Shown here piece after piece: positions 28,106 to 63,714 of a DNA stretch of 64,000 nucleotides. The notes beneath the pieces are model-generated. The model was not told the origin of the DNA. It searched no databases and worked only from the letters and a program-made list of their open reading frames with translations. Origin of the DNA: a virus; IMG/VR virus record IMGVR_UViG_3300030110_005581. One strand, given 5' to 3'. Position 1 is the stretch's first letter. Every line of letters starts with the position of its first letter. The position numbers and the translations under genes were made by a program.

Positions 28106-31100
28106 TTAGTTGTTTTCTGGAGTTTTATCCTCGCACTCACCTTCTGGGGCTGGCAAGCTCTCTTTATCTTTATCTGGTTCTTGTGCCATAAGCTTTGCTA
28201 TGATGCCCACAGGGGTCAGTGGACCAGGAAAGAACCATGGTGTTTTCCATGTTGGGTCTATTGTGTTAGCTGCTGCCTGAATAACTAACTCGAAGAACAT
28301 CTTGGCTATTTCATTTGGTGCTGGTGAAGATATGCTCAGCTTTTCCTCTTGTGTTTCCGGTTCTGGTGTTACGTATGAGTAATCGTCCTCAATGGCCTTT
28401 AAAGACTCGACAATAAAAGAACCAACAAAGCCCTTGGTGGAGCTAAATAAATTTTCAAGCTCAGGGTACGAAGCAAGCATTCCATATCGATATATCATGG
28501 CTGTTGTAAATGATGTTTGTTTGATCGGCAACACTTCGTTAAGCAAATCAGAATTTTTTAGATTATCCATCAACTTGTTTTGCATTTTGTAAATAATTTC
28601 TTCGCGCATTGGATTAGGCTTTGTTTCTGGATTGGTTTCTAGGCGGCTATGTGGGGCTAACATTGTGTTTAAAAGTTTGCAAGTCGCCCATAAGGTGGGT
28701 CGCACAGGGTCGTCTTTTGTCGAAGCGTCCATATAATATTGTTGAGGTTTTAAACCATCGGCCATCAGTGACTCATCCATAGAAAGAGGGCAAAACAAAT
28801 TGTTATATAAGTTGGCGTGGGTGTTTATAGCGGTGCCGCGGCTGTAATTGTATTGAACCTGATTGGCAGCCAATCCAAGTTCTGAAATTTTAGACATTAT
28901 CAAGCTCCATGGGTTTTCTTCGAATGGCGCTTTTGAGGAATCGCTAAACGTAAAGTGCGGTGCAGAAACACCAAAGGTTGGTGGAGATCCCGGTGGGTGC
29001 ATTTTCTCGTGTACCTGCTCCCAGTAATCTCTGAGATCGTACTCTTCAAATTCAATTGGCAGGCAAAGCCAATTTATAGCAGTTGTAGAATCACCATCAG
29101 TCAATAAGAAAGTTTTGTCTTGAATATAGTCCTTATCAATTTTTGCCTCTAGAGTGACATCTCTTAGTTCAGATATAATGTTCTCCATGTAGCTAGAATC
29201 TACACCTTCGCCCTTATAAGGTACAATTAGGTTTAACCTCATACCCATCGATATATCAAACCAATGATCAAAGGGCGCTTCCACTACAATTCTCTTCAGG
29301 TATTCACACATGCCGATCAAATTAAGTCCATTCTTTTTATAAAATTCATTAATTTTTCCCTCACCTCCGTCCAAAGTGCCGGCGAATTCGTCAAAACCAT
29401 GACGTATCATAAATTCAGCAATTTTTTCAAAAAACAACCTTTGAGATGGTAGTGGTGAAATATTCTCATTGTTTTCTTTTAGCGTCTCGTTCCATTCAGT
29501 GTTGAACTCCGGGTCGTTCGGGTCGGACAACACATCGTCCATGATAGCTTTATTTCCACCTGGATTGACTTCTTTTGCAGCAGAAAAAATATCAATAAAT
29601 GAAAAATTCCAATTTTTAAACGTTTGATCTGCCGTTTCAGAAAAATTGTGATATCCTATTGAATCTAGACCCACAACCCCCCTATTGCGAAAATTAAGCT
29701 GAGCCGAGTGGGGTATGCCGTCCGGATATTGCTGCCAATGGTAGAAAGCATTATAGAATGATTTATCACCATAAGCAGCTGCTTCCTTCTGGTAATCTGT
29801 GTCGGACGGGGCAGGAAAATAAGAACTAACAGTGCTTTGAAAAATTGATCTTAAATTATGAAAAGAACCATTCACTCCGGCGATTGCGTGTCCAAGTGAG
29901 ACTTTCCATTGGTCACCTTCCTTGTCAACCGGGGAAAAGAAAGTTAAAAAGAAATCCCAAAAAGTAGAAAGCTCTTCATCGCCATTGCCAAAAAGCAATC
30001 TTCCATGTTCTTCGTACTCTTTTTCAATCTTGCCAATGATTTTTCTTATAAAATTGTGAATTGTTCTGATTGCTGGATAGTGTTTTCTATAATTAAACTG
30101 CCCATATGGTCGACTTTCCGTCGATGGGATTATATCTTTATACAAGGAATTGCCACCGAATTCAGTAAAGAAAGTTGCATCGATGGGATCTCCATCTTCA
30201 ACGGGCGGTGGCCAACCCTTCAGCGCATCAAGCCCAAACCAATCAACCTTCTCTGGGACTTCACCCAGTTGAGTACCATCGTTGGCCACCCCTCCATATG
30301 CATTTACATCTTTAATATTTCTAAACATTGCAGTTTCCCATAAAGAAAAAGCTTGCTTAAATCTTTTCCAAAAATCTTGATAATAAACATCCGCAGCTTC
30401 AAGGCTGGTTGGCGGCTCGCTAGCTGTAGTTAGTTTAGACCTCATCCTTACGTAGGGCTCAAAAAATAAGCCACCCTCCCTCTCGGATGGAAAAGGCTTA
30501 GGTGATTGACTATATATGGAGTAGTCCTCGAAGTTCACTAGAGACGGATCAGGCATCTGACGAAATAGGGGCATCTTATTGACCTCCAGCTCTCCATTTT
30601 CTGTTTCCTGGCGGGTTGGGAACCTGCTCCCCTGCATTATTTCACGGTGGATAGAGTATTTGAAAAAGTCATTCTTAAAATAGTCCGCATCATCCAGTTT
30701 TGTGAATTGATCTTTCCAGGCCGGATTTGCAAATTTACGGACTCGTTCATCCATCAATTTATCAACTTCAAGCGCAGTTTCAACAATAATCATGTCTAAG
30801 CTTTCTTCGCGCGTTTTAACTCTAGTTTGTTCCGCCTTTTGTGCTTTTGTTAGGGGGGAACCATCTTCGTTTGTCATTGAATCGACATCAACATCCGCAA
30901 GGCGCGCCTTGACAACTTTTTGTGAATAATCTAAAAGATTTTCATATCCACTTGAAAGCGAACTTTCTACTGAAGATCTAATCGCAGATTTTATAATCGA
31001 CATATAAGCTTCATCTTCAATAATGTCAGAAATTTTTGCAAAAGAGAACATAAAGATATTCTTAAGATATTCCTCTGCAATACAAACTTTTATAAGCATC

Positions 31101-34100
31101 TTATATAGACCAAACATGTTTGCGATTTGGATCGCATCTGGAGTATCGAACATGCTAACCATGCATTCTAAACTTTTTCTAACCTCCTCCACGTCCGCTT
31201 TTGTTTTTTCTGGGTCTAACAGTGGTGTAGGGTTTGTTTCTAAGCATTTGGATTGTGCCTCTTCATTTGTGAGAGGTAGCGCATTAAAATTCTTTGCTTT
31301 AAAGAGATCTGTCTGAGAGGCGTTATCCCACACAGTCTCCAACATTAAGTTGGCTGCCAAGGGGAAAATGCCTTTAAAGATCAACGAGGGAGTATTGTCA
31401 GCGATCTGAGTGGCCGCCATCATCGCGGTCACCACCGTGCCCTTTGGTATATCGGGATTAAAAAGAAAATAATCAAAAAGTTCCTTCTGAAAATCGTCTA
31501 AATCGAATTTGTCAGCTTCCATTGCAATTTGCCCGGCAGGAGGATATTCATATTCCTTCACTCCACCATTATAAGATATGATTTTAATTTGTGGCGAAGG
31601 AATGCTCATGCCTTTGTGAACAATGTCAGTGCCAGAAAAATTAAAAACCATGTCCAAAGAATAGCTTGTTCCTGGCAAAACATACTCAAAAGAGCCTATT
31701 GCATTTACTGGGTCATAAAAAATCAACTGCTCGTTTTGAGTGTTTGATGCGACAATATCAGAAATTAAACCCCGAAACTTCTTAGCAACTAATTTATTGT
31801 TTTCACCGTCTGTGTCTGCGCTATAACTCTCTTGAGAATTGTTTAACATACCAGTGACTGCCTTCATGTATGCTAATGAAGGGTCGGCAGCTGTAGAGTC
31901 GTTGCCGGCCGCAGACTTAATGCTGTTTAAGAGAGCAGTCATCATGTTAGGGTTAAAGGTTTCTTTTATGAGTGGTTTGTATGCTGCCAAGGTATTATTG
32001 AAACTGTCATCAATTGCTTTGTAGGTTTTATCAACTAGGCGCTCTTGCATAAAAAGTTGTGTTTCGTGAGTTTGGCTTGGCATTAAGGGTTTCATGCCAA
32101 TTTGATCTGGCGCACAAGGTCCGCAGAAAAGTGGCGGATAGAGGCTCTTCATCATATTTGGGTCAATAAATGGCAACATGCTGGTTGCGTCTTCGAGTGC
32201 CTGCTGCTGGTCCCCTTCTGCAATTGCTAAAATATCTTCAGGCCATATAGATTTTTCCAATTCATCGACATTTGTTGGATCACAGAGACCCACTAGTGCC
32301 TCTTGAAAAGCATTATATTCATCTATTGCGTCATCATATATATCGCTATCAATAAGAGAACCAAGATCTAGCAGGAAAGCTTGGGCCTGGTCAGGTGAAA
32401 TAAAACCAGGAGGGAAAGGTAAAATTGTAGTGTTCCCGGTTTCAGGATCTTCTTTCTCATATGTTTGGTTTTCTTTGTTGGGGTCGTAACCAGTTTGCGC
32501 CGCAATCGCAGCCAATGAAAGGCCAGGAAAATTCATTTGAAGCGCCGCGATTGTTCCCTCATCCATAAAGGCCAATGCAGCATCCTCATAACTTCCCTCA
32601 AAAGAATCATCTCCGCATTCTGTTGTAAAAAGCCTCTTTAATTCACTAGGGGAAAATACATCTCCAAGCTTTTCAAACCCATCATACAAAGTTTGAACAT
32701 CCTGATTGAAGAAGTGCTTAGCCTTCAAGTCCCCAAATTTATCCCAAAGCTCATTGTCTCCAGAATCTTTATATATGCTAGAATTTAATATCCAATCCCT
32801 TGGGCTAGTAAGCCCAAATGGAGAACCCGTACCATTGCATAAATCTTGAGTCAAACCACCGTTAAACTGCTCTTTAACGTATTTTAAGACGACCATGGCA
32901 GTCGCATAGATTATGCTCATTGCCATGTCTTTGAGGCCCCTCGCAAAGGATTTCCTGAAGCTTTCTAGTTTGTCTGTGGATTTAAGATAATTTTTGATTG
33001 GATCTACAAATCTGTCAATTGCCAAAGTTCCATTTTGGTCATTATCGTATAATTTATCTTTTGCTGCAGTTGTCATGCCATCAATGCTTTGATCAGTTAG
33101 CTCTTCCACATATTCTAGCATTTTTGTGACAGGGCCATATGAAGCCAATATACAATCACATATTGCATCGCCGGCGACTTCTTCAGCCCAGTCTAGCATT
33201 TCTTGATTAAAATCTCCAGGAGATCTTCCCAACTTCTTTTGCATGTATGGGTCGGAACAATACAGTGGTATTAACTGAACCATGATCTGAGTCTCAGTCC
33301 ATGGCTCTGAAGGGTCTGGTGGAAATCTTTCAGGATATCTAGTGCTGGCGATTTTATATACATCTCCAACGCGGCCCGTAATTTTTTCTTCTAGCTTTGC
33401 AATGGCCAAATCACCGTTTGGCACATTTCTTAAACAAGGATAAAGCTGTTGACGTATTTCTGATATGGGCACTGTCTTTAAGATTGTTTGGCACATGTGC
33501 CTTTTCATGGCGCTGTTTTTAGCACACTTGAAAATAAGAGCAGACGCCATCTTGATTAATTCCGCTATAGGTATACGATTCAGCAATTTATCAAAAAGCT
33601 CCGACATGGACTTAATTTCTCCAAACACAGCCTTTAATAAGTTTTCATCACCAGAATACATATTGGTGACATTCGAAGTGCCGGCAATTAAGTTCTTTAT
33701 ATCCGGAGACATTAAATTTGTAGGATCTTTTATGTACTTTCCTGTAAATAAGAGATCTTTAAAAATGGGATTTTTTAATTGAAGTGGGTCAACCAAAGAC
33801 TCTAATGTTGGCTTTGCCTCTCCATTGTAATTTGTTTCAGGCGTAGGATATACATACGTATTGATAAAATCAAGCCAAGATTGGTGCATTGAAAACAGAT
33901 CTGTGCTATAGTTTCCGCCCGATTTTAAGTATTTTCCATATCTCCTGTTGATCTCAGGCAACATATGTAAGAAGTTATTAATTCTTGGCACCGAAAAAGG
34001 TCCAGAGCCTCTAATTGAGTTTAAGCCTTCTTTTAAAATGTAGGGTGTAATATCGGCACCTTCCTCACACAAGCAATCCGCCACCTCACTAAAAGATACA

Positions 34101-35200
34101 TATTGTAAAACATATTCTTCAGTGAACCCAAACTGAATTGCACCAAGGGGGGTATTCTCTTTTATGTCTTTTAGGCTTGGGAGGGAGTTTGCGCGGAAAA
34201 GGCCATTGATAACCCCATAAATTTCTTTTACAGAATTTGCTGAACATTTTGCATTGAAGCTAGTTTCGAAGCCCTCTTCTGCAAATGCAATATTCATTTG
34301 GGCATCAAAGTGAAAAAGTATTTTTTGTAAATTTTTCAGGTACTGATCGAAATCTTTAACTAAAACTAAAACTTCTCTACTGACCTTGGACATGTCTACT
34401 TTGTTGCTTTTTTGAGGAAGTGAGTCAACCCAACCTCTGTCAAACATAATTTTAACCCACAAAGTCTGGTATTCTGGCCTTCGAGGGATAATATGCCAAG
34501 CCTGTGCTGTGGGGACTTCTTTTTGGGCGCCAGTTGTAACATCTCGACCTCGATCAACTATTTTATTTTGCGGCATAAAACCAAAGTTGTGAGCTAAATC
34601 TACAATCTTGTCTTTTCGTATTTCTTTATCTAAATCTTTTTCCAATTTGCCCAAGGCCCATAGTTTACATTTATTTACAAACTCTGGATCGCCTAACAGG
34701 CCTCTTCCGCTGCCTTTTCCCTTGGGGGCTGGGTGTCCAACCTCTATCTTGCCAGAAGCGTCAACATAATCAGCCAAATTGGGGTTTTTGAGCATATTCT
34801 CGAATACAAGAGGTACTATATAGTATTGTTTACGAGGGTCTGAAGAAAGGTGAGTTTTCTTTCTCTGCCACCAAGCCTGGGTATTTCCTATATTTTTTTG
34901 CTCATAATTTCTGTTTATTTCATCGCCATAACTGACGGAAGGCCCAATACCATAGCCCTTCTTGATTACACTTAATTTGTAAGCCCAACTGTAATTTTCA
35001 TCCGGATCAAACATATCTGGATCATTCATTTTACTTTGTATGATAGACTTAAATTCTTCTAACGTAGGCGAATAGCCGCTATGAACTTTTTTTCCATTTT
35101 GAATAGAAAAAGTTTTTTCAACTGCGCCCTTCTCTGGTTCTTTGAGGAGGCGATCATATAATTTTTCTATCTGTGTGTCTTGTGTTGTCTTGCTAGCCAT
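28106..35200 (-). CDS. Very large hypothetical protein between the spike and gp25, probably virion structural
   Basis: 2364 aa, acidic, appears largely helical, no recognisable catalytic motif. Assignment rests on position only. Confidence 0.45.
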   Translation of the reverse strand: MASKTTQDTQIEKLYDRLLKEPEKGAVEKTFSIQNGKKVHSGYSPTLEEFKSIIQSKMNDPDMFDPDENYSWAYKLSVIKKGYGIGPSVSYGDEINRNYEQKNIGNTQAWWQRKKTHLSSDPRKQYYIVPLVFENMLKNPNLADYVDASGKIEVGHPAPKGKGSGRGLLGDPEFVNKCKLWALGKLEKDLDKEIRKDKIVDLAHNFGFMPQNKIVDRGRDVTTGAQKEVPTAQAWHIIPRRPEYQTLWVKIMFDRGWVDSLPQKSNKVDMSKVSREVLVLVKDFDQYLKNLQKILFHFDAQMNIAFAEEGFETSFNAKCSANSVKEIYGVINGLFRANSLPSLKDIKENTPLGAIQFGFTEEYVLQYVSFSEVADCLCEEGADITPYILKEGLNSIRGSGPFSVPRINNFLHMLPEINRRYGKYLKSGGNYSTDLFSMHQSWLDFINTYVYPTPETNYNGEAKPTLESLVDPLQLKNPIFKDLLFTGKYIKDPTNLMSPDIKNLIAGTSNVTNMYSGDENLLKAVFGEIKSMSELFDKLLNRIPIAELIKMASALIFKCAKNSAMKRHMCQTILKTVPISEIRQQLYPCLRNVPNGDLAIAKLEEKITGRVGDVYKIASTRYPERFPPDPSEPWTETQIMVQLIPLYCSDPYMQKKLGRSPGDFNQEMLDWAEEVAGDAICDCILASYGPVTKMLEYVEELTDQSIDGMTTAAKDKLYDNDQNGTLAIDRFVDPIKNYLKSTDKLESFRKSFARGLKDMAMSIIYATAMVVLKYVKEQFNGGLTQDLCNGTGSPFGLTSPRDWILNSSIYKDSGDNELWDKFGDLKAKHFFNQDVQTLYDGFEKLGDVFSPSELKRLFTTECGDDSFEGSYEDAALAFMDEGTIAALQMNFPGLSLAAIAAQTGYDPNKENQTYEKEDPETGNTTILPFPPGFISPDQAQAFLLDLGSLIDSDIYDDAIDEYNAFQEALVGLCDPTNVDELEKSIWPEDILAIAEGDQQQALEDATSMLPFIDPNMMKSLYPPLFCGPCAPDQIGMKPLMPSQTHETQLFMQERLVDKTYKAIDDSFNNTLAAYKPLIKETFNPNMMTALLNSIKSAAGNDSTAADPSLAYMKAVTGMLNNSQESYSADTDGENNKLVAKKFRGLISDIVASNTQNEQLIFYDPVNAIGSFEYVLPGTSYSLDMVFNFSGTDIVHKGMSIPSPQIKIISYNGGVKEYEYPPAGQIAMEADKFDLDDFQKELFDYFLFNPDIPKGTVVTAMMAATQIADNTPSLIFKGIFPLAANLMLETVWDNASQTDLFKAKNFNALPLTNEEAQSKCLETNPTPLLDPEKTKADVEEVRKSLECMVSMFDTPDAIQIANMFGLYKMLIKVCIAEEYLKNIFMFSFAKISDIIEDEAYMSIIKSAIRSSVESSLSSGYENLLDYSQKVVKARLADVDVDSMTNEDGSPLTKAQKAEQTRVKTREESLDMIIVETALEVDKLMDERVRKFANPAWKDQFTKLDDADYFKNDFFKYSIHREIMQGSRFPTRQETENGELEVNKMPLFRQMPDPSLVNFEDYSIYSQSPKPFPSEREGGLFFEPYVRMRSKLTTASEPPTSLEAADVYYQDFWKRFKQAFSLWETAMFRNIKDVNAYGGVANDGTQLGEVPEKVDWFGLDALKGWPPPVEDGDPIDATFFTEFGGNSLYKDIIPSTESRPYGQFNYRKHYPAIRTIHNFIRKIIGKIEKEYEEHGRLLFGNGDEELSTFWDFFLTFFSPVDKEGDQWKVSLGHAIAGVNGSFHNLRSIFQSTVSSYFPAPSDTDYQKEAAAYGDKSFYNAFYHWQQYPDGIPHSAQLNFRNRGVVGLDSIGYHNFSETADQTFKNWNFSFIDIFSAAKEVNPGGNKAIMDDVLSDPNDPEFNTEWNETLKENNENISPLPSQRLFFEKIAEFMIRHGFDEFAGTLDGGEGKINEFYKKNGLNLIGMCEYLKRIVVEAPFDHWFDISMGMRLNLIVPYKGEGVDSSYMENIISELRDVTLEAKIDKDYIQDKTFLLTDGDSTTAINWLCLPIEFEEYDLRDYWEQVHEKMHPPGSPPTFGVSAPHFTFSDSSKAPFEENPWSLIMSKISELGLAANQVQYNYSRGTAINTHANLYNNLFCPLSMDESLMADGLKPQQYYMDASTKDDPVRPTLWATCKLLNTMLAPHSRLETNPETKPNPMREEIIYKMQNKLMDNLKNSDLLNEVLPIKQTSFTTAMIYRYGMLASYPELENLFSSTKGFVGSFIVESLKAIEDDYSYVTPEPETQEEKLSISSPAPNEIAKMFFELVIQAAANTIDPTWKTPWFFPGPLTPVGIIAKLMAQEPDKDKESLPAPEGECEDKTPENN

Positions 35201-42175: not shown

Positions 42176-42205
42176 TTGATTTCTCCTTTTTTGTTGCGAG
42201 ACTTG

Positions 42206-42214
42206 ATTTTAACA
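42206..42214 (-). promoter_or_regulatory. Extended -10 promoter (TGnTAAAAT)
   Basis: Minus strand TGTTAAAAT in the AT-rich gap 42176-42253, upstream of the genes leading to the sigma factor. No clear -35. Confidence 0.4.
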
Positions 42215-42253
42215 TGCTTATTTTTATTTTTTAAGTAATGCTGCTATTTTTAT

Positions 42254-42985
42254 TTAATACTCTGTCTCTAGAGAGTTGGAATTTCCAGATCTATACTTCT
42301 GGCCTTTAATTTTATAGATATCAGGAGGCACATTTTTAAATTTATCGGAGTGATATTCTTCATAAAAATTGCCACACTCTGAGGGCGTATATGTAAAAAA
42401 TACTATAGTTCTAGATAAGTTTGAATTATTTCCATATGATGCATGCGGAACATAGCTATCAAACAATATAATGTCTCCAGCATTCGTTGGGCACGCCTCT
42501 AAGTATATGTTTTCATTAAGATCTTGAAAGTTTTCTGTCAACATGCGGTTTGTCTTTTTGCCAAAAAATATACAACCATTTTCCTCGTTAGTGTCACAAA
42601 GCGGAATAGCAACTGAGACATGTCGATTACAATAATTACCCCAACTAGCAGCTATATCTTGGTGTGGCAAAAAGCCTTCCCCGCCGGGATATTTAAAATT
42701 AATTTTATCCTTAAATAGAACAGGAGTATCGCGCAACTTCTCTTGAACGAGAGATAAAAGTTTTGCATCCAAAGACAAGTCTCTTAGACTCCCGTTGTGG
42801 TTTACAAAATATTCTATCCTACTTAATGTCTTTTTGTCTTTTTCAAAATATTTCCACACATAATCTTTTCTATCTTCTTCTGAAATAAGATAGTTTATAT
42901 GCTGTTGGATATTGTCAACCTGCTCAGAAGACAAAAATGACTCAACTTTTTCATACCCAAATGCTTCGTCCCAAGTACTGTTCAT
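42254..42985 (-). CDS. PhyH-family Fe(II)/2-oxoglutarate dioxygenase, PhnY-like
   Basis: 243 aa with HxD (PHQD), a distal His (VPHAS) and the 2OG Arg (SRT). The motifs WKYFE..LSRIEYF, LFKDKINFKYPGG.GF..HQD, NEENGC and GDIILFDSYVPH resemble (from recall) the 2-aminoethylphosphonate hydroxylase PhnY. Confidence 0.75.
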   Translation of the reverse strand: MNSTWDEAFGYEKVESFLSSEQVDNIQQHINYLISEEDRKDYVWKYFEKDKKTLSRIEYFVNHNGSLRDLSLDAKLLSLVQEKLRDTPVLFKDKINFKYPGGEGFLPHQDIAASWGNYCNRHVSVAIPLCDTNEENGCIFFGKKTNRMLTENFQDLNENIYLEACPTNAGDIILFDSYVPHASYGNNSNLSRTIVFFTYTPSECGNFYEEYHSDKFKNVPPDIYKIKGQKYRSGNSNSLETEY

Positions 42986-43554
42986 TAAATTTTCCTGTGT
43001 GCGTTAAATCTTAGAGCCTTGTCGGGTCTCGTATAATAGGCGTCACTAACTTGCCAGCCTTCAAATTCTTCTTTTTGGAATAATAGGTGGTCAGTGGTGC
43101 AAGAGTTTATTGGCAAGTCTCCTATAAAGATACTTTTTTTTGACACTCGCTCCATTTCAGATATCGCCATGTGCACATATTTTTTGTCTGGAAAATAATG
43201 GAACACGCTAAATGAAAAAACAAAATCAAAAGACTTGTCTTCAAATGGCAAATTTGAAGCTTCTGACACAAAAACATTGTTTCCTAGAATGTTACGATGC
43301 TTTTCAATCAAAGATTCCGAATAATCAACACCAACATAGTTACAATCAAAATGCTGCGCTAGCATTCCGGCACCACAGCCGACTTCTAAAATACGAGAAT
43401 CTTTGTTAATTCCCATAATTTTACATATGTTATCTACTACATTGATGGCTGCTTCGCGAAAATTAGTTTTTTCATGACCGTTTAAGAGACAGAGGTCTTC
43501 TGTATTTTCGGCCCCTTTTCGGTTCCAAACCTTTTTCCAATCTGTAGGCATCAA
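42985..43554 (-). CDS. Class I SAM-dependent methyltransferase
   Basis: 189 aa with ILEVGCGAG, VGVDYS and LPFEDKSFDFVFSFSVFHY. Confidence 0.9.
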   Translation of the reverse strand: MMPTDWKKVWNRKGAENTEDLCLLNGHEKTNFREAAINVVDNICKIMGINKDSRILEVGCGAGMLAQHFDCNYVGVDYSESLIEKHRNILGNNVFVSEASNLPFEDKSFDFVFSFSVFHYFPDKKYVHMAISEMERVSKKSIFIGDLPINSCTTDHLLFQKEEFEGWQVSDAYYTRPDKALRFNAHRKI

Positions 43555-46286
43555 TCATTATCCTCATAAATCTTGTGATTAAAAGATACGAGGCCCTTCT
43601 TTCCTAAGCTATTACAATTCGGGGTACCCCATAATTCCTCGAAGAACGCAAATGAAGTAAAGGTGCCAACATCATTGTACCAATACTCATTCATATCTGA
43701 GTGTTGATTCCCTTGAGGGTAAAAGCTTTTAAATAGCAACTTTGCCTTATTGTAATTTTCTTCGCTTAAAAATTGTTCTTTGTGTTCTTGTCCGATCATG
43801 GATATACAGTCACCAACATCTGCTCGACGAACTGTTTCTCCATCACTAGATCTAACATGATTGCCCCATGGTTGCTGGTAGTGGCAAGTTGCGGATGTGT
43901 GTTCAGAGAGGACAAACTTCTCCAAGTCATTTTTGCTTACATTTACTAAATCGCCACAAACCAGCACACAGTCTCCATCAATGGAAAGTGCGGCCTTAAA
44001 CGTACTTCGAATTTTATCGTCTTCTGGATTTAAAACTTGCACATGAGGATAACTTTGCTTAACGTGATCAATTAAATCCGTGTTTTCAGAGCTGGCGACA
44101 ACGTAAGTTTTAGTGTTTTCTATATCGCACTCATCTAACAAATTATTAATCAGAGGCTTTCCTTTGAACGGCTCTAAGTGCCTGTTTCTGTTAGGTTTTG
44201 GGGGCCCTCCTGCTAAAATTACAATGTTCTTAAACCTGGGTTTTAAAAACTCTTTTACCATGTTTACGTCTCGAATATCTTTATCTTCGCCTCTAGTTGA
44301 TTTCATTTTTACCATCCCCTGCAGGGACAAAAACTTTAAACCGTGTGCGTAGATGTGTTTTTTTGAATTATATAAGATATCTCGCGCATCATCAACATAA
44401 TATCTGAGGTATGGATTGTGAGAAGAAACATTCTCAGTGAATGGAATTGTGTTTGATGGCAAGTGAATAACATCAAAATCGCGGCAGGCGCGTTTTCCAT
44501 ACAGCGACAGCGGAGCACTACCTCCCACACAAAAATCTTCCAAGTCCAGATCGCTATTTTCAATTACGTGCTTAGTCTCTTTTACAAACTGCTTAATGTT
44601 TGGTGTATTGAAGGCACCCACCTTTGAGGTATTTATGAACTCTAAAGTAGGTTCATGGAATGCAATAGTTGCATTTCTCCATGCCTCTTCGTAAGTGTCA
44701 GTAGTGTGTACGCTTGGCTTCCCAACGCCAATAATATCTCTAATTTCATTTTTGACGCGCGTAGCTGTTTCCAGACCATCGCATTCAAATAAGATAACCT
44801 TTACATTATTTCCTTTTGAGAAATTTAAATTAGCCTGTTCGTGCGCTCCAGGGTATCCATTCGCTTCATTGCCAAGCCACGCTTCGTCAGAATAAGAAGA
44901 GATGACATAATTTAATCTACCAGTGTCACTAAGTTCAATATCCTTTTGATATACAACAGAGACATTGTTTTTTGCAAAAATCTCAGAGATTTTATCAAAA
45001 TGAGGCTCGCAATGGGCATAAAGAGACGTTACAAACACATGCTTCTTTAGTCTCATGTATTCTAGTGCCATGGCATCCGCGGTATTTCTGTCCAGGCCCG
45101 TTGGGACAATATCCTTCTTGTTTAAAAAATAATCCGCAGAACACATCAATTGTCCTGCATCTGGGGCACTTTCTTTGCAAATAAGGGGCGTACCATAGGT
45201 AATAGCAGCTGCGGTGCGGTGGGCCCCATTTAAAAGCATGTGGAGACCACTGACAGGGACAAATGATTTTTCTTCATCAAACCCTGTTGTCTTTATATCA
45301 TCCAAAATCGAATGGTATGCATTATAAAAATCTTCTAAATTATTTTTAGCAGGCCTCTTTTCGGTAAATCCACCCCACACTTCTAAGTGATTTTCATACA
45401 CTGATTTTGCAAAAAAGCTTTCAACGCCCTTTTCGCGATGTCGGGCATACAAAGTCTTTGCTGGCAAATCAAACCGCCAAGCAGTTAAGAGTTCGGTTGC
45501 ATCGTCAATAACAAACCTATCTTTATATTTGCTTTTAATCCCATAGGCTCTAGAATATTTAGGCTTGCGGCGGATCTCTGATTCATATGACAATTGTTTT
45601 TTGCGCTTCTCTGGCACTACATGGTCGTTATTATCATGAAGATTGTAAACATATATTAACTCTTTGACAAAAGATATTTTGTCTCCAGCCATCTCTAGCA
45701 TGGGAAACATAAAAGCCAAGTCCCAAGCTGCTTCGTAAAAATTGCCTTCTTTGTTTTTAAGATCTTCTATTTTAATTTGCTTCCATAAATGGTGCTTGAA
45801 AGTCCTCAAAGCTGAAGTCATCCATGGTGAATTTCTGTAAGAGCGATTCCTTATTATTTTTTTAGGCACTGCTTTTTCACAAAATTTGCTACGCTCACCA
45901 GAAGGATAAAGCACATGGCTTCCATAAGTGAGCCAACAATCATCTTTATCATAATATTTTTTCAAAAGAGATAATACTTCTCTATTTGCAAACCAATCAT
46001 CTCCATCTAGCGTAACAATAACGTCTTCGTCATCGGGACTAGATTTGATCACCGCTTTATAAATATTTTCTAGGGCGCCCACATTCTTGTCATTCTTTAT
46101 GAAAATAAATTTATCATTTCCTTCAATTTCCTTCTCCACGATAGAGACAGTATTGTCGGTAGAGCAATCGTCAATCAGAACACATTGGAAATTATCATAA
46201 TCCTGAGCCTTCACGCTTCTAATACAAGCCTTGATCCACTTTTCTACATTGTAGAAGGGTACAATTATTTTAAAATGCATTTTCAA
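43551..46286 (-). CDS. Multidomain protein: GT2 + ParB/Srx-like + NDK-like + Pol-beta-type NTase + NTP-transferase
   Basis: 911 aa (the ATG at 46280 fits the SD better). GT2 motifs IIVPFYN..IDDCSTD..LDGDDW. LLNGAHR at aa 353, VHTTDTYEEAWR at aa 527, GGSAPLSLYGKRACRDFD at aa 588, IVILAGG..GKPLI..VCGD at aa 690. Confidence 0.75.
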   Translation of the reverse strand: MKMHFKIIVPFYNVEKWIKACIRSVKAQDYDNFQCVLIDDCSTDNTVSIVEKEIEGNDKFIFIKNDKNVGALENIYKAVIKSSPDDEDVIVTLDGDDWFANREVLSLLKKYYDKDDCWLTYGSHVLYPSGERSKFCEKAVPKKIIRNRSYRNSPWMTSALRTFKHHLWKQIKIEDLKNKEGNFYEAAWDLAFMFPMLEMAGDKISFVKELIYVYNLHDNNDHVVPEKRKKQLSYESEIRRKPKYSRAYGIKSKYKDRFVIDDATELLTAWRFDLPAKTLYARHREKGVESFFAKSVYENHLEVWGGFTEKRPAKNNLEDFYNAYHSILDDIKTTGFDEEKSFVPVSGLHMLLNGAHRTAAAITYGTPLICKESAPDAGQLMCSADYFLNKKDIVPTGLDRNTADAMALEYMRLKKHVFVTSLYAHCEPHFDKISEIFAKNNVSVVYQKDIELSDTGRLNYVISSYSDEAWLGNEANGYPGAHEQANLNFSKGNNVKVILFECDGLETATRVKNEIRDIIGVGKPSVHTTDTYEEAWRNATIAFHEPTLEFINTSKVGAFNTPNIKQFVKETKHVIENSDLDLEDFCVGGSAPLSLYGKRACRDFDVIHLPSNTIPFTENVSSHNPYLRYYVDDARDILYNSKKHIYAHGLKFLSLQGMVKMKSTRGEDKDIRDVNMVKEFLKPRFKNIVILAGGPPKPNRNRHLEPFKGKPLINNLLDECDIENTKTYVVASSENTDLIDHVKQSYPHVQVLNPEDDKIRSTFKAALSIDGDCVLVCGDLVNVSKNDLEKFVLSEHTSATCHYQQPWGNHVRSSDGETVRRADVGDCISMIGQEHKEQFLSEENYNKAKLLFKSFYPQGNQHSDMNEYWYNDVGTFTSFAFFEELWGTPNCNSLGKKGLVSFNHKIYEDND

Positions 46287-47106
46287 TCACCTCTGCTATC
46301 TCTTTTCTTTTTTCGATAAAAACATCTATCAACTCTAAGCCCTTCTTTTTAAACCATGGCTCTTTCGTCGCACCAATTAAATTGTTTGTTACGAGGCCCA
46401 TGTTCATCATTCTGGCTTCGACAACTATTCTAGAAAAGGTTTCCGGAGTACGTGGGAAGAATATTAAATTTTTATTTTTTGAAAGATTTTTTAAAAACAA
46501 ATTTGGAGGGGCTGGTTCAATCAACTCATAATCTATTTTTTTAATTTTACAATATTCCACTGATCCTAGCGTGTTTTTGTGTGGGATCGGAGAGTTCATA
46601 ATCGAACTTTTCTCACTCTTTGAACCCTGCGATAGTTCTTTCAAGAGCGCCAACGTCTCTAGTGACCACAAATTTCCACTCAAATTAACAATATTGTCAA
46701 GTGATAGATTTGAGTTCACAATGTCTGCATGAAATTTAGTTTGACACAAGACCGCTTTAGCATTCTTGTAGAAATCATAATTTACTATTTCAGACTTGGG
46801 TGCAATAAAATTTTCATAAATCGCTGGATTTCTGCTTTTGAGATATTTGTGGTCGTGCTCATAAATTACATACGGCACTTTTCCGTTTGTGATCTTCTCT
46901 TTCAGCGATGGCACTAAGTTTATAAAATTACCTACGATTAAGCCAGAAACATCAGATAGCATTTGTTCAGTAAGTTTATGGCTCTGCACAGAGGTAACTT
47001 TGTTACCCCTGCGTTTTAAGATGCCGATCAACTCTTCATTGCTTAATTCGCCTCCCCCAACTATGTGTTCGACAAAAAAATCAGCGACAAAGAGCATTTC
47101 ACTCAT
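46270..47106 (-). CDS. GT-B fold glycosyltransferase-like protein
   Basis: 278 aa with an N-terminal VGGGELSNEEL and PETFSRIVVEAR resembling the E-x7-E motif of GT4 enzymes. Confidence 0.65.
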   Translation of the reverse strand: MSEMLFVADFFVEHIVGGGELSNEELIGILKRRGNKVTSVQSHKLTEQMLSDVSGLIVGNFINLVPSLKEKITNGKVPYVIYEHDHKYLKSRNPAIYENFIAPKSEIVNYDFYKNAKAVLCQTKFHADIVNSNLSLDNIVNLSGNLWSLETLALLKELSQGSKSEKSSIMNSPIPHKNTLGSVEYCKIKKIDYELIEPAPPNLFLKNLSKNKNLIFFPRTPETFSRIVVEARMMNMGLVTNNLIGATKEPWFKKKGLELIDVFIEKRKEIAEVIENAF

Positions 47107-48391
47107 ACGTTTCCTCGTTTAACTCGTCAAGCCAGCCTTGGACATCCATATTTTCTTCTGGCTCTTTTACATACTCCGTTAGGCAGTTAGCAAAAGCTGT
47201 ATATTGACCCTCTTCACTGAAATTCTTCAATATCCACTTTTTAAGATCCTTGGCGTGTTTCTTGAACCTTCCGTAGTCCTTATACATCTCTCGCAACTTC
47301 ATCTTGTAGGAACCCTGCTTTGGATATGCCCAAAGAGAGCCGCGCTCTAGAACCCCATCCCAAACTGCATGCTCGGGGATTGGCTCCAGGTCGTATTCGA
47401 CGCGGGCAAAGTGAGGCTTCATCTTTTCCTTTCCGCTTTTTTTGTCCTTTTTTGGTGCAAAAAGAAAATCAACGTGACCGCTCCATTCAGGAGCTAAAAC
47501 TGGCATTCCGTTGTAGGCAGCTTCAAATAATGGTAAACCAAAGCCTTCGCCATGTGTCAGAGAAACAAGCGCATTTATTTTAGGGTGTTTATAGAGTGAA
47601 TCCATTTCTTGATCTGACATGTCTCCGTGCAAGAGATATACTTTGCACTGTCTGTTTTCATATTGATTCAGCATTCCGGCCAATACAGTCTGCATATCTT
47701 CCCTATCCAGCAAAGAATTACCACTTGAGAAAGTTTTTAAGACTAGTCCAACATCCGGATTATCGATAAATTCTTCCACAAACCATCTAACAGTGTTTTC
47801 CAAGTTCTTTCTTGGGCCCCACTGTGCCACAGTCAAGAAATTAAAATCTGTCTCAATATTGAGATTTAAATCTACTTCTTCATGTTTTTTAACTGGATAG
47901 TGCACCACTTCAATGTCTTTATTACATCTCAGCTCTGCCTTTTCGCCAGTTCTATTGTCGATGCCGTCGTACACGCTATTTAAAAAGACTTGTTTTGAGT
48001 GTTCTGAAACGACAACGATCTTGTTCATAAAATTAGCTTTTTCCAGCCATACCGGGGCGACCCTACTAGTCTCTATCCCCGCTGTAACGCCGATATTAAT
48101 CGGGGCCATCGGCTGCCATTCATTGGGGATTGTTACTTGAAGGCTGATATCATATTGAGGCTTTCCGCCGCTTCGATGATGGTAGACAGCTGTTTTTTGA
48201 ATCAATTCATCAATCCAAGCCCTTTCCTCATCATCTCCCGATATCCACCCACACTTGCCCCAATTAACAGGTATAACATGTATATCATATTTATCCTCAA
48301 CACTACGCAATGCCCTCAAGACAAATCTGCCGTGCTCTCCATACCCAGAACGGGTCAATACTGGTGCTCTTACTATTACTTTTTGTTTCAT
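47099..48391 (-). CDS. Glycosyltransferase family 4
   Basis: Start revised to MKQKV at 48391 (TAATG coupling, SD GAGG). Motifs RSGYG, RKNLE and THGEGFGLPLFEA. Confidence 0.88.
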   Translation of the reverse strand: MKQKVIVRAPVLTRSGYGEHGRFVLRALRSVEDKYDIHVIPVNWGKCGWISGDDEERAWIDELIQKTAVYHHRSGGKPQYDISLQVTIPNEWQPMAPINIGVTAGIETSRVAPVWLEKANFMNKIVVVSEHSKQVFLNSVYDGIDNRTGEKAELRCNKDIEVVHYPVKKHEEVDLNLNIETDFNFLTVAQWGPRKNLENTVRWFVEEFIDNPDVGLVLKTFSSGNSLLDREDMQTVLAGMLNQYENRQCKVYLLHGDMSDQEMDSLYKHPKINALVSLTHGEGFGLPLFEAAYNGMPVLAPEWSGHVDFLFAPKKDKKSGKEKMKPHFARVEYDLEPIPEHAVWDGVLERGSLWAYPKQGSYKMKLREMYKDYGRFKKHAKDLKKWILKNFSEEGQYTAFANCLTEYVKEPEENMDVQGWLDELNEETYE

Positions 48392-49671
48392 TATAGTTTC
48401 CTCATTTCCCACGATTTGTAGCCGCGGCGTGTATCCCAAGATCCCATCTCTTCGTGAATCATGGTTAAAGTCTCATCCCAAGAATTGCAATAATTTTCAA
48501 AATTATAATTTTTTACAACATGCTCTCTTCCTAGTTTGCCCATTTTTTGTCGCTCTTCTTTGGGCATTTCATAAAGCTTAACCAAGGCATCAACCACATC
48601 TTTTCCGCTCACTCGGTCTTCGTAGATCCATGGAATTTCTTGAGAACCGATTATTGCTTTAGCGGCAGGCTCAATACCAACACCAAACCAATTTTCTCCA
48701 TCAGTCACCTGCTCTTGCAAACCGCCGGTCATATTAACAATAATCGGAGTTTCGCAAGACAGCGATTCTAAAGTTCCTAGACCAAAACCTTCTGCGTCAG
48801 CTACATTGATAGTGGCATCGCACATATTGTACATAAGGGAAAGTACCATTGGATCGACCTTGTTTTGAGAAAACAGAACCTCGCCATTTACTAAGCCCAG
48901 ACTTTTAATAATCGCCTCAAGGTCTTGTCCGTGGGGGTCCTTTACATCAGTGTGCATAAGCAAAGATGCCTTATCGTGCCCCACCTTATCCAAAAACTCT
49001 TTAAACCAGTAAATCAAGGATCCACTATGTTTTCTCCTAGCATTTCTATTGTTCCAAAATACCAAAAATTTATCTTCATCATAGCTGTTTCCAAATGATT
49101 TTCCAAAAGAATTCTTAGCGAATTCTCGTACTTCACCTGCATCATGGCGAGAAAAGATTTGAGAATCCACTGCATGGGGAAGATATAAAGATTTTACTTT
49201 TGGCGCGACATCCTTAACACACTTATCTGTGACTTTTGAGATACATGCAATGAAGTCATTTGATTCATAATATTTCCTATTAAACATTGGCGAAGGGCCA
49301 TTATCCCACACATGGTAATAAACCATTGGCATAAGTGGGCGAATTTCGTGCTCCATTTCCCACAACCAACCCCAAAATCTAGGATCTGTCATAAACCATA
49401 AAATATCTGGCCTCTCTTTTCTTAAGACAGACCTCAACAATTCTTGATTTCCGTAACCATCAACTGGGAGTGTAACCCAATCTTTACCAAACTCTTCAGT
49501 TTGAAGTGGCTTATAATCATGGTGCTTCATCGCACCACCCAGACTGAAAAAAGTATATCTTCCAGTTCTCAAAAGTGACTCAATCATATATTTTGTTTGA
49601 GTGCCCACACCAGAAGGCGCAAAAGGCATATCACTTAATGTTAAAATTTTAATTTTCTTTTGTGTTTCCAA
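48391..49671 (-). CDS. Glycosyltransferase family 4
   Basis: 426 aa with SGVGTQT, RNARRK and AEGFGLGTLESLSCETPII. Confidence 0.88.
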   Translation of the reverse strand: METQKKIKILTLSDMPFAPSGVGTQTKYMIESLLRTGRYTFFSLGGAMKHHDYKPLQTEEFGKDWVTLPVDGYGNQELLRSVLRKERPDILWFMTDPRFWGWLWEMEHEIRPLMPMVYYHVWDNGPSPMFNRKYYESNDFIACISKVTDKCVKDVAPKVKSLYLPHAVDSQIFSRHDAGEVREFAKNSFGKSFGNSYDEDKFLVFWNNRNARRKHSGSLIYWFKEFLDKVGHDKASLLMHTDVKDPHGQDLEAIIKSLGLVNGEVLFSQNKVDPMVLSLMYNMCDATINVADAEGFGLGTLESLSCETPIIVNMTGGLQEQVTDGENWFGVGIEPAAKAIIGSQEIPWIYEDRVSGKDVVDALVKLYEMPKEERQKMGKLGREHVVKNYNFENYCNSWDETLTMIHEEMGSWDTRRGYKSWEMRKL

Positions 49672-52221: not shown

Positions 52222-52250
52222 ATAATACAACATTATATTTTATCTGTCAA
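52222..52250 (-). promoter_or_regulatory. Near-consensus sigma70 promoter heading the DoxX-to-dioxygenase operon
   Basis: TTGACA (52250-52245), 17 nt spacer, TATTAT (52227-52222). Confidence 0.8.
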
Positions 52251-55190: not shown

Positions 55191-55589
55191 TGGTGGAGGC
55201 GTGGGGAGTCGAACCCCAGTCCGAAAAGAATTAACACTACCGTCATTCACAAGATTAGATACTTAACCCCCCAAGTATCGGCCACCTGACGACTGTCAGG
55301 GTTGTCCATTTACCATCTTAAGGTGATGGCTACCAAAAAGTACATAGTAAGCTATTGTACTTAAAGACCTTTTTATTAAAAGGTTCACTCAAAGAGCTAA
55401 CATATTATATCGTATATGCTACCGAATTAACTTTTTTTATAAAGCGTTAACAGCTCCAGACTATGCAGCTAAGGCGTAGTCAAACTCCATATTATCATTG
55501 GCGTTTAAAGATTTGAGTATTTTGGCTGTGCTACTCACACAGTCTTGCACGTTAGTCTCTCAACTCCCCGTCAAAACCAGTCCGCCCCC
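55191..55589 (-). ncRNA. ssrA: tmRNA (one-piece, 399 nt), tag ANDNMEFDYALAA
   Basis: 5' GGGGGCG pairs with 3' CGCCTCC-ACCA including the G3.U alanine identity pair. T-arm CTGGGGTTCGACTCCCCA. Tag frame 55502-55461 GCC AAT GAT AAT ATG GAG TTT GAC TAC GCC TTA GCT GCA TAG. Confidence 0.95.
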
Positions 55590-56080: not shown

Positions 56081-56881
56081 CTATATTTCATATATTATAT
56101 CTTCATTAAGAGCTTCTAACTCTTCTGCATCTTCCTCTGTCTTAGTGTCGGGAGGAGGATAGTCCGGGCTAGGTGGCTCTTTTTTTATACTATCGCCCAT
56201 TTCTCCCTCAAACTTATCAAAGTATAATTTAAGGTTCGTAAGACCCCAGTCTTTAAAGGCTGCAGCGTCTTCTGGTGCGATAAGCCCTTCGTAAGCTGTT
56301 ACGATCTGTTGCTCTACGTTGACTAGTGCTTGCTCAGCAGCTTCGGCGCCTTGTTGTACATAAGGATCGTCAGAATCTAATTTAACAAATCCACTTTCTT
56401 TCTTTTCAGCGTCTTCTTTGGCTGCATCAATATCTTGAGGTCTAGATGGTAGAAACTTTTCAGCATCTGGGGTAGAATTAATAACATCATCTTGTTCAAC
56501 AGTAACATCAAAGTCTACTTCATTTAACTGTACATTGGGGGCGCCTCGATTTGCGTCGATCGGATTGAGAAGTCCTAAGAAATTAGTTAAAAAATGGTAT
56601 CTAAAAGATTCTCTTTCTTTAGTATCAGAGGACAAATTTGTGAATGAATCTTCGATTTGCACAATAATCCTCTTCAAGAGGGCGTCTAGTACATTAATTC
56701 CAGTATTTTTATGAATGACCTTATCCGCAACTGCAGTTTTTCTAGAAACCTCAGTTATGTAGTGGCGAATAACTTTTCTCAATCGATCCTCTTCGGAGGT
56801 TGTTTGTTTTTTTCTGCGTTCTTTTACAATTCGAATGCCTTCACGAATTAATGTTCTTAGTTGTTGTTCTTGTTGGTTCAT
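56081..56881 (-). CDS. Acidic hypothetical protein, probable internal head protein
   Basis: 266 aa with LRTLIRE and LRKVIRHYITE helices and two LNE motifs. Confidence 0.45.
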   Translation of the reverse strand: MNQQEQQLRTLIREGIRIVKERRKKQTTSEEDRLRKVIRHYITEVSRKTAVADKVIHKNTGINVLDALLKRIIVQIEDSFTNLSSDTKERESFRYHFLTNFLGLLNPIDANRGAPNVQLNEVDFDVTVEQDDVINSTPDAEKFLPSRPQDIDAAKEDAEKKESGFVKLDSDDPYVQQGAEAAEQALVNVEQQIVTAYEGLIAPEDAAAFKDWGLTNLKLYFDKFEGEMGDSIKKEPPSPDYPPPDTKTEEDAEELEALNEDIIYEI

Positions 56882-62718: not shown

Positions 62719-63714
62719 TTAAATTTTATCTTTATGGCCTGAAAAATAAATCTGCTGAATAGTTTTGCTTGTCAAGTTTTTTTCTAGCAAATTTTTAAAT
62801 TCTTTAGAGGATTTCATTTTGACGTGATCTCCATCTTTATACATGGCCCAAGTATTGACAGATTCCAGGACGTCCATCTTATTAACGACCAAGTGCGTCA
62901 CTCCATTAATGTTGATGGCCTTTTTAAGAAAATTTAAATTCATCCAGTTTACTTGTCTTTTCCTGCCAGTCGTGGCGCCATATTCTTCTCCAACTTCTTG
63001 GATTTTATTATAAATTTTACCTTCTGGTTGGAATTTCTTTGCCCCCACATAGGTTTCATAGCCTTTTGCAACCCCCCATACATGACGAATGTTTTGAGGG
63101 GGAACACCATTCATGCAAGCAGCGGCAGAAATGCAATTTGATGAGGTGACATAAGGATAATCTCCCCAGTCAACATCTAGTCCAAACCCTTGGGCGCCCT
63201 CAAACAAGACTTTTGAATCTGGTGTTTTGACATGCAATTCTTCGTATAGATCGACAACATATTCAGACAGCTCAGGAATGTCTTTAGCTCGTTTTCCAGT
63301 TCTGTCGTATTTGTCGCGATAAGCTGGGCCGTTACCTCTTTTAGTGGTGCCGATTTTTGTATCTTTTCCGTCTTCTGTTAGGTGCTCTTTGGTAATAATG
63401 TGTGTATTTTCTGCAATAAAAATAAGACCATCGGTTTCTATACCGCCATCTTTTAATTCTTTAATTTCTTTAAAAAACTGATCTACATTTAAAACACACC
63501 CTGAACCAATAATTGATTTGATACCAAAAAACACTCCTGCGGGAATGTGGTGAGTAATAAACTTTTTTCCTTTGTGGAAAATAGTGTGGCCCGCGTTGCA
63601 TCCGCCGTTATAACGAATCACATGGGTATAATCTTCTTGCTGGCAAAGCGCATGCGTGACTTTTCCTTTGCCGCAATCTCCGTACTGTAAGTCTACAACA
63701 ACATCTGCAAACAT
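62719..63714 (-). CDS. purA: Adenylosuccinate synthetase (short form)
   Basis: 331 aa with QYGDCGKGK, GGCNAGHT, FEGAQG, YPYVTSS, GATTGRKR and VNKMD. SD GGAGG. Confidence 0.93.
   Translation of the reverse strand: MFADVVVDLQYGDCGKGKVTHALCQQEDYTHVIRYNGGCNAGHTIFHKGKKFITHHIPAGVFFGIKSIIGSGCVLNVDQFFKEIKELKDGGIETDGLIFIAENTHIITKEHLTEDGKDTKIGTTKRGNGPAYRDKYDRTGKRAKDIPELSEYVVDLYEELHVKTPDSKVLFEGAQGFGLDVDWGDYPYVTSSNCISAAACMNGVPPQNIRHVWGVAKGYETYVGAKKFQPEGKIYNKIQEVGEEYGATTGRKRQVNWMNLNFLKKAININGVTHLVVNKMDVLESVNTWAMYKDGDHVKMKSSKEFKNLLEKNLTSKTIQQIYFSGHKDKI

Follow-up and report, generated by a model that had tools for sequence, protein, structure and literature searches.

A PhnY-like dioxygenase without PhnZ, coupled to a methyltransferase in a phage glycosyltransferase operon

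Introduction

PhnY is reportedly a 2-aminoethylphosphonate (AEP) dioxygenase, described by McSorley et al. in 2012 from fosmid HF130_AEPn_1, and Yu et al. are said to have recognised in 2013 a set of 'Group 1 phosphonolipid' clusters which contain PepM, the phosphoenolpyruvate (PEP) mutase, together with a putative alpha-ketoglutarate oxygenase. In these clusters, also called 'Burkholderiales_CDP-OH', the oxygenase is predicted to give 1-hydroxy-AEP lipids (Li and Horsman 2022, PMC8942020). Fosfazinomycin biosynthesis involves a methyltransferase and a PhnY*-homologous dioxygenase, FzmB and FzmG (PMC8942020, PMC4303578), and with TmpA and DfmD, the 2-(trimethylammonio)ethylphosphonate (TMAEP) enzymes accompanied by N-methyltransferases, AEP is N-methylated before a 2-oxoglutarate (2OG) dioxygenase acts at the carbon beside phosphorus (PMC9296572). 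Among viruses, an AEP pathway has been described from one giant-virus metagenome-assembled genome (MAG; GCF 881), where a core of PepM, phosphonopyruvate decarboxylase (Ppd) and AEP transaminase (AEPT) lies beside sugar genes and was read as a viral phosphonoglycan; no Ppm was found in RefSeq viruses and none was reported from 364 huge-phage genomes scanned (PMC8942020). According to one proposal, the phosphonate-bearing surface coat of the host shields it against phages and grazers (PMC8931226). In the present work we analyse a PhnY-like gene of the PhyH family which overlaps a methyltransferase gene on viral DNA of 64,000 nucleotides (IMG/VR record IMGVR_UViG_3300030110_005581; this whole stretch is called the window below). 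Our search of the literature found no paper describing the phage cassette to which this gene belongs.

Results

The gene in question encodes an intact PhyH-fold Fe(II)/2OG dioxygenase of 243 aa, and in related viruses it stands directly upstream of genes for AEP formation, a context that supports, at the level of the viral clade, biosynthetic tailoring rather than phosphorus scavenging. The protein matches Pfam PhyH (PF05721) with 77 bits over residues 9-193 (cut-off 22), and among curated families it fits best to NCBIfam NF052437, which represents PhnY* of Gimesia, a methylphosphonate hydroxylase (E 3.8e-32, full length); the second-ranked family, ectoine hydroxylase, is weaker by 28 orders of magnitude. 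The first-pass annotation of the window had recognised the protein by PhnY-type motifs, and every motif that it quoted was found in the translation (WKYFE, SRIEYF, LFKDKINFKYPGG, HQD, NEENGC, FDSYVPH and DKFKNVPPDIYKIKGQKY); most of them are family-wide signatures, present also in the PhnZ-adjacent PhnY of picocyanobacteria. The predicted iron ligands are H108, D110 and H181 and the predicted 2OG-binding arginine is R192, about 11 residues past the distal histidine of the HxD...H triad; the alignment columns of these four residues are invariant in the viral clade and in both cellular groups. An AlphaFold2 model built with 19 homologues as input (pLDDT 92.7, pTM 0.91) has the double-stranded beta-helix fold, with proline hydroxylase H11, GriE, EctD and PHYHD1 as Foldseek neighbours (TM 0.66-0.72, E about 1e-12), and searches of solved structures gave no PhnY structure among the matches. 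The common cyanophage 2OG oxygenase family was ruled out as the identity of the protein, its PHROG matches being weak.

In a large protein database the protein has about 65 relatives at 45-95% identity, every one close to 243 aa in length and the majority of marine metagenomic origin; next, after a gap, come cellular proteins at 30-40%. When IMG/VR and metagenome contigs were scanned, 30 non-redundant loci of the close type were obtained, including one from a giant-virus MAG, and overall the identity of the viral clade to the protein is 45-99%. No match was obtained in 50,697 deposited phage records, searched at both nucleotide and protein level with the locus, the PhyH protein and the middle region of the 911-aa protein encoded upstream, and the clade is absent from 185,579 prokaryotic species (one genome each), where the best match is 34-40% identical. 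The phylogenetic comparison with PhnY and PhnY* that the first-pass annotation had advised separates the two sides clearly: in a maximum-likelihood tree of 54 proteins the viral clade is a single branch on a long stem (support 100/100), and the PhnZ-linked clade, made of four picocyanobacterial pairs and one metagenomic pair, lies on the other side of the tree (99/97). A quick tree of 88 rows agrees. Residues R56, E58, K92, K94, N96, K98, H108-Q109-D110, N136, H181, S183, N186, R192, Y211 and K215 are conserved in all three groups, the viral, the PepM-linked cellular and the PhnZ-linked proteins, whereas W115 and a C-terminal PPD..Y (P220-P221-D222...Y231) are common to the viral clade and its biosynthetic cellular relatives and are not found in the PhnZ-linked proteins.

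The genomic neighbourhoods of these relatives were labelled with hidden Markov models (HMMs) built from the module genes of one of them, L003, an IMG/VR contig of 63.6 kb. Its gene order follows that of the window from PhoH through the pair of GT4 glycosyltransferase genes, the 278-aa gene and the 911-aa fusion to PhyH (72% identity for the fusion, 60% for PhyH), and collinearity resumes further on, from small open reading frames (ORFs) through to the sigma factor. Between PhyH and these small ORFs, L003 carries a 3.1-kb module of five genes encoding a PepM-like protein, PpdN, PpdC, AEPT and a cytidylyltransferase. Its PEP-mutase-family protein reaches 134.5 bits with Pfam PEP_mutase, the best curated match of the thiamine pyrophosphate enzyme split over two genes is phosphonopyruvate decarboxylase, and that of the class V aminotransferase is the AEP aminotransferase PhnW-AepZ. 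PepM or Ppd is present in 19 of the 30 viral-type loci, most of the others being contigs that end near PhyH, and the usual gene order is GT4-GT4-X278-GT2-MID-NTP-(MT)-(PhyH)-PepM-PpdN-PpdC-AEPT-CT, where MID is the middle region of the fusion, NTP the nucleotidyltransferase, MT the methyltransferase and CT the cytidylyltransferase. PhnZ was found neither in the 30 viral-type loci nor in 12 further loci or four related viral records.

A second scan, seeded with the PepM-like gene, gave 12 IMG/VR contigs of up to 136 kb whose cassettes contain both PhyH and the methyltransferase, either one or neither. This variable presence suggests that the two genes are optional tailoring modules between the nucleotidyltransferase gene and PepM. 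The pair also occurs without PepM in the available flanks, in L018/L019 and in the giant-virus group L007/L035/L036. At one locus (L005:11784-12920) a RuBisCO large-subunit-like protein (Pfam 124 bits) is encoded between PhyH and PepM.

A canonical PepM with the EDKx5NS motif is found in four loci (L024, L025, L026, L027), and that of L024, with 410.8 bits, passes the cut-off of the PEP mutase equivalog model (319.55 bits). Most phage cassettes encode at this position a PepM-like protein of 289 aa (L003:10734-11603; also L005, L022, L023, L028, L032, L034, L037 and L246-L257), which reads EDNPSPKRCSF in place of EDKx5NS (K to N and N to C, the KRC resembling isocitrate and methylisocitrate lyases) and DADEGG where PEP mutases have DGDTGYG. 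PEP mutase is still the best-scoring family of the L003-type protein, at 221 bits. Against the deposited phage records the PepM-like protein gave only matches of 31% identity or less. Because of the variant motif, surveys that filter on EDKx5NS would discard it.

The module is missing from the window at exactly the position that it occupies in L003. The first-pass annotation had seen neither PhnZ nor a PEP mutase, and our searches in every frame of the 64-kb window (HMMs at E<=10, and tblastn) detected no PhnZ, PepM, Ppd, AEP transaminase or module-type cytidylyltransferase. The same module-less junction is present in L011 (99% protein identity) and G001/L002 (98%), so that the arrangement is seen in three independent assemblies of 96-99% nucleotide identity and the absence is not an assembly artefact. 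Since almost every branch of the clade has the module, the closest relatives with downstream sequence (L003, L014/L015) among them, its loss from the syntenic site in this phage lineage is the simplest reading. The PhyH gene differs from that of L011 by 12 synonymous and 2 non-synonymous codons, a pattern which indicates that it is under purifying selection. A terminator search after PhyH detected none.

The gene preceding PhyH encodes a class I S-adenosylmethionine (SAM)-dependent methyltransferase, with Pfam scores above threshold for Methyltransf_11 (65 bits) and Methyltransf_25 (57 bits). Its overlap with PhyH, and the position of both at the end of a glycosyltransferase operon, were as the first-pass annotation had described them; upstream lie the GT2 fusion, the 278-aa gene and two GT4 genes. 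The TAA stop of the methyltransferase overlaps the ATG of PhyH in TAATG, and its own ATG is overlapped in TGATG by the stop of the 911-aa gene. Judged by these overlaps, the methyltransferase gene is translationally coupled at both ends. Its top sequence matches among solved structures are phosphoethanolamine (PMT1/2) and phosphatidylethanolamine N-methyltransferases (E 1e-8 to 1e-6), in alignments confined to the SAM-binding stretch and not full length, and NCBIfam PmtA scores 34 bits for a cut-off of 390; N-methylation is thus weakly indicated, a lead rather than a finding. One member of the methyltransferase family is fused to a cytidylyltransferase; other members are found widely among bacteria, where no connection with phosphonates is apparent. 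Methyltransferase and PhyH form a single protein in L007 (giant-virus MAG, 9338-10696, 452 aa, with both Pfam domains) and in L036 (1177-2496, 439 aa), and such fusions suggest that both activities are tied to one pathway step or substrate. In L026 an arrangement resembling the fusion is possibly split by a frameshift.

Catabolic references were sought in 401 alphaproteobacterial and 401 cyanobacterial genomes. Among the Alphaproteobacteria, PhnZ (TIGR03276) occurs in 75 of 401 genomes and is never adjacent to a PhyH gene, and matches to the PhnY* model lie mostly in biosynthetic contexts. A PhyH gene immediately followed by PhnZ was found in four picocyanobacterial genomes, and the 243-aa protein is 31-32% identical to these PhnZ-adjacent PhnY. 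The other cellular relatives, in 131 loci, are largely biosynthetic, with PepM within 8 kb in 37 of them and with NTP transferase, CDP-alcohol phosphatidyltransferase and an LPG-synthase-like membrane protein as the commonest neighbours, and the nearest cellular relatives (30-40% identity) lie in clusters of PepM/Ppd/AEPT and NTP-transferase genes. In two Rhodospirillaceae MAGs (L100, L109), a PhnY-like gene and a lipid-type phosphonate cluster stand beside squalene/phytoene synthase and squalene-hopene cyclase genes.

The features of the locus are collected in Table 1. In the 911-aa fusion, the GT2 part is supported by Pfam with 88 bits and the NTP-transferase part by a weak NTP_transf_3 match (E 0.017). 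The middle region, which has no Pfam hit, was modelled with AlphaFold2 (window 44241-45524, minus strand; pLDDT 92.3), and VIA-align placed on it, beyond an N-terminal stretch of about 150 residues that received no assignment, a nucleoside diphosphate (NDP) kinase-like domain at segment residues about 161-293 (Z 11-12.6) and a pol-beta-type nucleotidyltransferase domain at about 307-428 (Z 8-9), with D349 and D351 invariant. Foldseek on this region was weak, giving the NDP kinase only (E about 1e-3), and profile searches of solved structures with the middle region and with the NTP-transferase domain gave nothing useful. A LicD-like phosphotransferase was considered for the pol-beta domain and was not established. 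In L004, L005 and L007 each of the three parts is encoded by a gene of its own, in every case next to PhyH, and the middle segment is a stand-alone gene in many relatives. The promoter match heads the co-oriented gene run that ends with PhyH; it is a consensus match only, and the count of sigma-70-like sites in the region is no higher than in shuffled sequence.

Table 1. Features of the glycosyltransferase operon and its flanks in the window
Feature	Position	Strand	Basis and remarks
Spacer of 78 bp between PhyH and the next small gene	42176..42253	-	L003 carries its 3.1-kb module at this exact position
PhnY-like PhyH-family Fe(II)/2OG dioxygenase, 243 aa	42254..42985	-	Pfam PhyH, NCBIfam, AlphaFold2, Foldseek
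Class I SAM-dependent methyltransferase, 189 aa counted from TTG	42985..43554	-	Pfam; probable start is the ATG at 43551
911-aa fusion: GT2 (about 1-250), middle region (about 255-682), MobA/LicC-like NTP-transferase domain (about 686-911)	43551..46286	-	Pfam, AlphaFold2
X278, 278-aa protein conserved in the cassette	46270..47106	-	No Pfam hit; 58% identical to the syntenic L003 gene
Two GT4-type glycosyltransferase genes (47099-48439, 48391-49671)	47099..49671	-	Pfam Glycos_transf_1; phrog_2170; syntenic with L003
Sigma-70-like promoter match TTGACA-17-TATTAT, 11/12	52222..52250	-	Best in region

The rest of the window is that of a tailed phage, with a baseplate wedge protein, PhoH, a gp55-like sigma factor and a transfer-messenger RNA (tmRNA) gene. 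The latter lies at 55191-55589 (minus strand) and encodes the tag peptide ANDNMEFDYALAA. On the same strand are found a 715-aa protein (56878-59025) whose residues from about 430 to 596 form a weak cytidylyltransferase-like domain that has no relation to the cytidylyltransferase of the cassette, an adenylosuccinate synthetase gene (62719-63714) and, in the structural region, two very large ORFs of 3545 aa (13291-23928) and 2364 aa (28106-35200). The neighbouring large proteins of the structural region gave no match when tested against PHROG.

Discussion

Taken together, these data make it probable that the hydroxylase of the viral clade, as an active Fe(II)/2OG enzyme in the PhnY/PhnY*-like branch of the PhyH family, is an optional tailoring enzyme in a phage pathway for an AEP-type head group linked to a glycan. 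The first-pass annotation had proposed biosynthetic tailoring in a glycan pathway instead of scavenging, and the relatives, in which PhyH lies directly upstream of PepM-Ppd-AEPT-cytidylyltransferase, PhnZ is absent and methyltransferase-PhyH fusions occur, are in agreement with this proposal. It had also suggested that the precursor is supplied by the host or by another part of the genome, in keeping with the module missing at the syntenic site: if the module was lost while the hydroxylase stayed under selection, the phosphonate must come from one of these sources. From the sequence comparisons, a phosphonate would be the most likely substrate in this particular phage.

Several observations weigh against the tailoring of an aminophosphonate. 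None of the genes of the module (PepM, Ppd, AEPT, cytidylyltransferase) is present in the window, and the PepM-like protein of the closest relatives has no canonical EDKx5NS and stays below the PEP mutase cut-off. With NF052437 the 243-aa protein scores 111.8 bits for an equivalog cut-off of 500, the model being narrow enough that PhnZ-adjacent cyanobacterial PhnY reaches just 218 bits. The nearest folds are hydroxylases of free amino acids and of ectoine, uninformative on phosphonates, and the viral clade has no biochemically characterised member. Furthermore, three residues that do not vary in either cellular group, D130, R193 and R208, have been replaced in all of the viral clade (130 mostly by C, 193 by P, T, I or V and 208 by Y), so that the substrate or its binding mode may differ from that of PhnY. 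These replacements are independent of the presence of the methyltransferase or of PepM; had the change at position 130 followed the methyltransferase, an N-methylated substrate would have been indicated, but no such correlation was found and the idea was ruled out.

The replaced residues, together with the absence of the phosphonate-forming module from the window, the recurrence of PhyH and methyltransferase with no nearby PepM in L018/L019 and L007/L035/L036, and a methyltransferase family that is spread across bacteria with no visible phosphonate link, could also be explained if the PepM-less lineage had re-used both enzymes on a non-phosphonate substrate of the glycan pathway, such as a zwitterionic head group or an amino sugar derivative. 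We regard this as rather unlikely: the identical active-site substitutions are found in PepM-adjacent viral members, so that no switch is tied to the loss of the module, and the basic and polar core common to PhnZ-linked PhnY is intact. Phosphoethanolamine in particular is a chemically unattractive alternative substrate, since a phosphate ester hydroxylated at C1 would, by chemical reasoning, be an unstable hemiacetal. That the pair is a functionless remnant decaying after the deletion of the PepM module would account for a module missing exactly at the syntenic site; such a remnant is very unlikely, as the reading frame is intact with all catalytic residues, the translational coupling is retained, synonymous differences from L011 outnumber non-synonymous ones 12 to 2, and three independent assemblies share the arrangement at 96-99% nucleotide identity.

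A catabolic PhnY acting on scavenged AEP or methylphosphonate, with PhnZ supplied from elsewhere in the phage or by the host and phosphate released during infection, is suggested by the closest curated family, PhnY*, and by the identity of 31-32% to PhnZ-adjacent picocyanobacterial PhnY; phosphate-stress genes are common in marine phages, PhoH is encoded in the window, and the search for PhnZ in this phage covered only the 64-kb window. Such a role is nevertheless hardly to be expected. PhnZ is missing from the window, from the four related viral records and from all 30 viral-type and 12 further loci, the viral clade is split from the PhnZ-linked clade with strong support, and W115 and PPD..Y match the biosynthetic group and not the catabolic one. 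Moreover, the gene is, by its overlaps, translationally coupled into a glycosyltransferase operon, and a biosynthetic PepM adjoins it in relatives.

For the tailoring role that we favour, we infer the substrate, the regiochemistry, N- over O-methylation, the order of the steps and the glycan target (virion or host surface), and the pathway could be drawn as follows. In the relatives, (i) PEP would be converted to phosphonopyruvate by PepM or the PepM-like protein; (ii) phosphonopyruvate would be decarboxylated by Ppd to phosphonoacetaldehyde; (iii) phosphonoacetaldehyde would be transaminated by AEPT to AEP; (iv) AEP would be activated with a nucleotide by the cytidylyltransferase; and (v) the activated group would be transferred onto the glycan that the GT4 and GT2 enzymes build. 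By analogy with PhnY, PhyH would hydroxylate the carbon beside phosphorus to give a 1-hydroxy-AEP-type group, and the SAM methyltransferase would methylate this same molecule once or more, the amine being the most likely site. In the phage studied here the phosphonate precursor would be drawn either from the host or from genes that lie outside the window.

This last case leads to a more speculative proposal, which we put forward tentatively: a virus limited to tailoring after dropping its own genes for C-P bond formation, in which AEP from a pepM-positive host would be hydroxylated and methylated and phage transferases would place the head group on a virion or host-surface glycan, marine viruses then being an unrecognised source and modifier of glycan-bound phosphonates in the ocean. 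If true, this viral source of phosphonates would be partly hidden from surveys by PepM-like genes that do not have the canonical motif. Apart from this proposal, dozens of marine contigs carry a modular phage-borne glycan/phosphonate cassette with PhyH and methyltransferase as optional tailoring steps, which suggests that hydroxylated and methylated aminophosphonates are produced or altered by viruses; pepM surveys that rely on motifs may overlook the viral subfamily. The phage of the window represents a case where tailoring enzymes appear to be kept under selection with no precursor genes beside them, and the genes of the cassette are targets of cloned-gene size for a first biochemical test of a biosynthetic PhnY-like enzyme.

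Compared with known systems, the viral protein shares with PhnY and with PhnY* of Gimesia maris the PhyH-type fold, the HxD...H...R set and the K-x-K-x-N-x-K and R-x-E motifs. It differs from them by the replacement of D130, R193 and R208 and by its location in a glycosyltransferase operon and not with transporters, and from the sampled PhnZ-linked proteins by its C-terminal PPD..Y extension. As it scores below the 500-bit cut-off, has no PhnZ nearby and forms a separate clade in the tree, it is not to be filed as PhnY or PhnY*. With TmpA and DfmD, which belong to the BBOX/TauD lineage, the resemblance is one of analogy only. The likeness drawn here to FzmB/FzmG is one of function: there too, a SAM methyltransferase and a PhnY*-like dioxygenase act in turn on one small phosphonate with hydroxylation of the carbon beside phosphorus, but their substrate is phosphonoacetate, methylated on the carboxylate, whereas the viral relatives encode an AEP transaminase and an amine-bearing substrate would be expected.

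Unlike GCF 881, the cassette described here is found in tailed-phage contigs and has PhyH and methyltransferase modules added, and many of its copies carry a PepM-like gene that the EDKx5NS filter would reject. The oxygenase of the 'Burkholderiales_CDP-OH' clusters shares W115 and the C-terminal PPD..Y with the viral protein and is its nearest cellular kin, standing beside PepM, Ppd, AEPT and nucleotidyltransferases. At the end of those clusters stand a CDP-alcohol phosphatidyltransferase and an LPG-synthase-like membrane protein, implying a lipid product, whereas the viral cassettes are joined to GT2 and GT4 enzymes, implying a glycan product, often with a methyltransferase, and the viral proteins stand on a long separate stem. 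In its mode of action the viral protein comes closest to the uncharacterised biosynthetic PhnY-like oxygenases, of which it represents a new form that is viral, glycan-linked and coupled to a methyltransferase.

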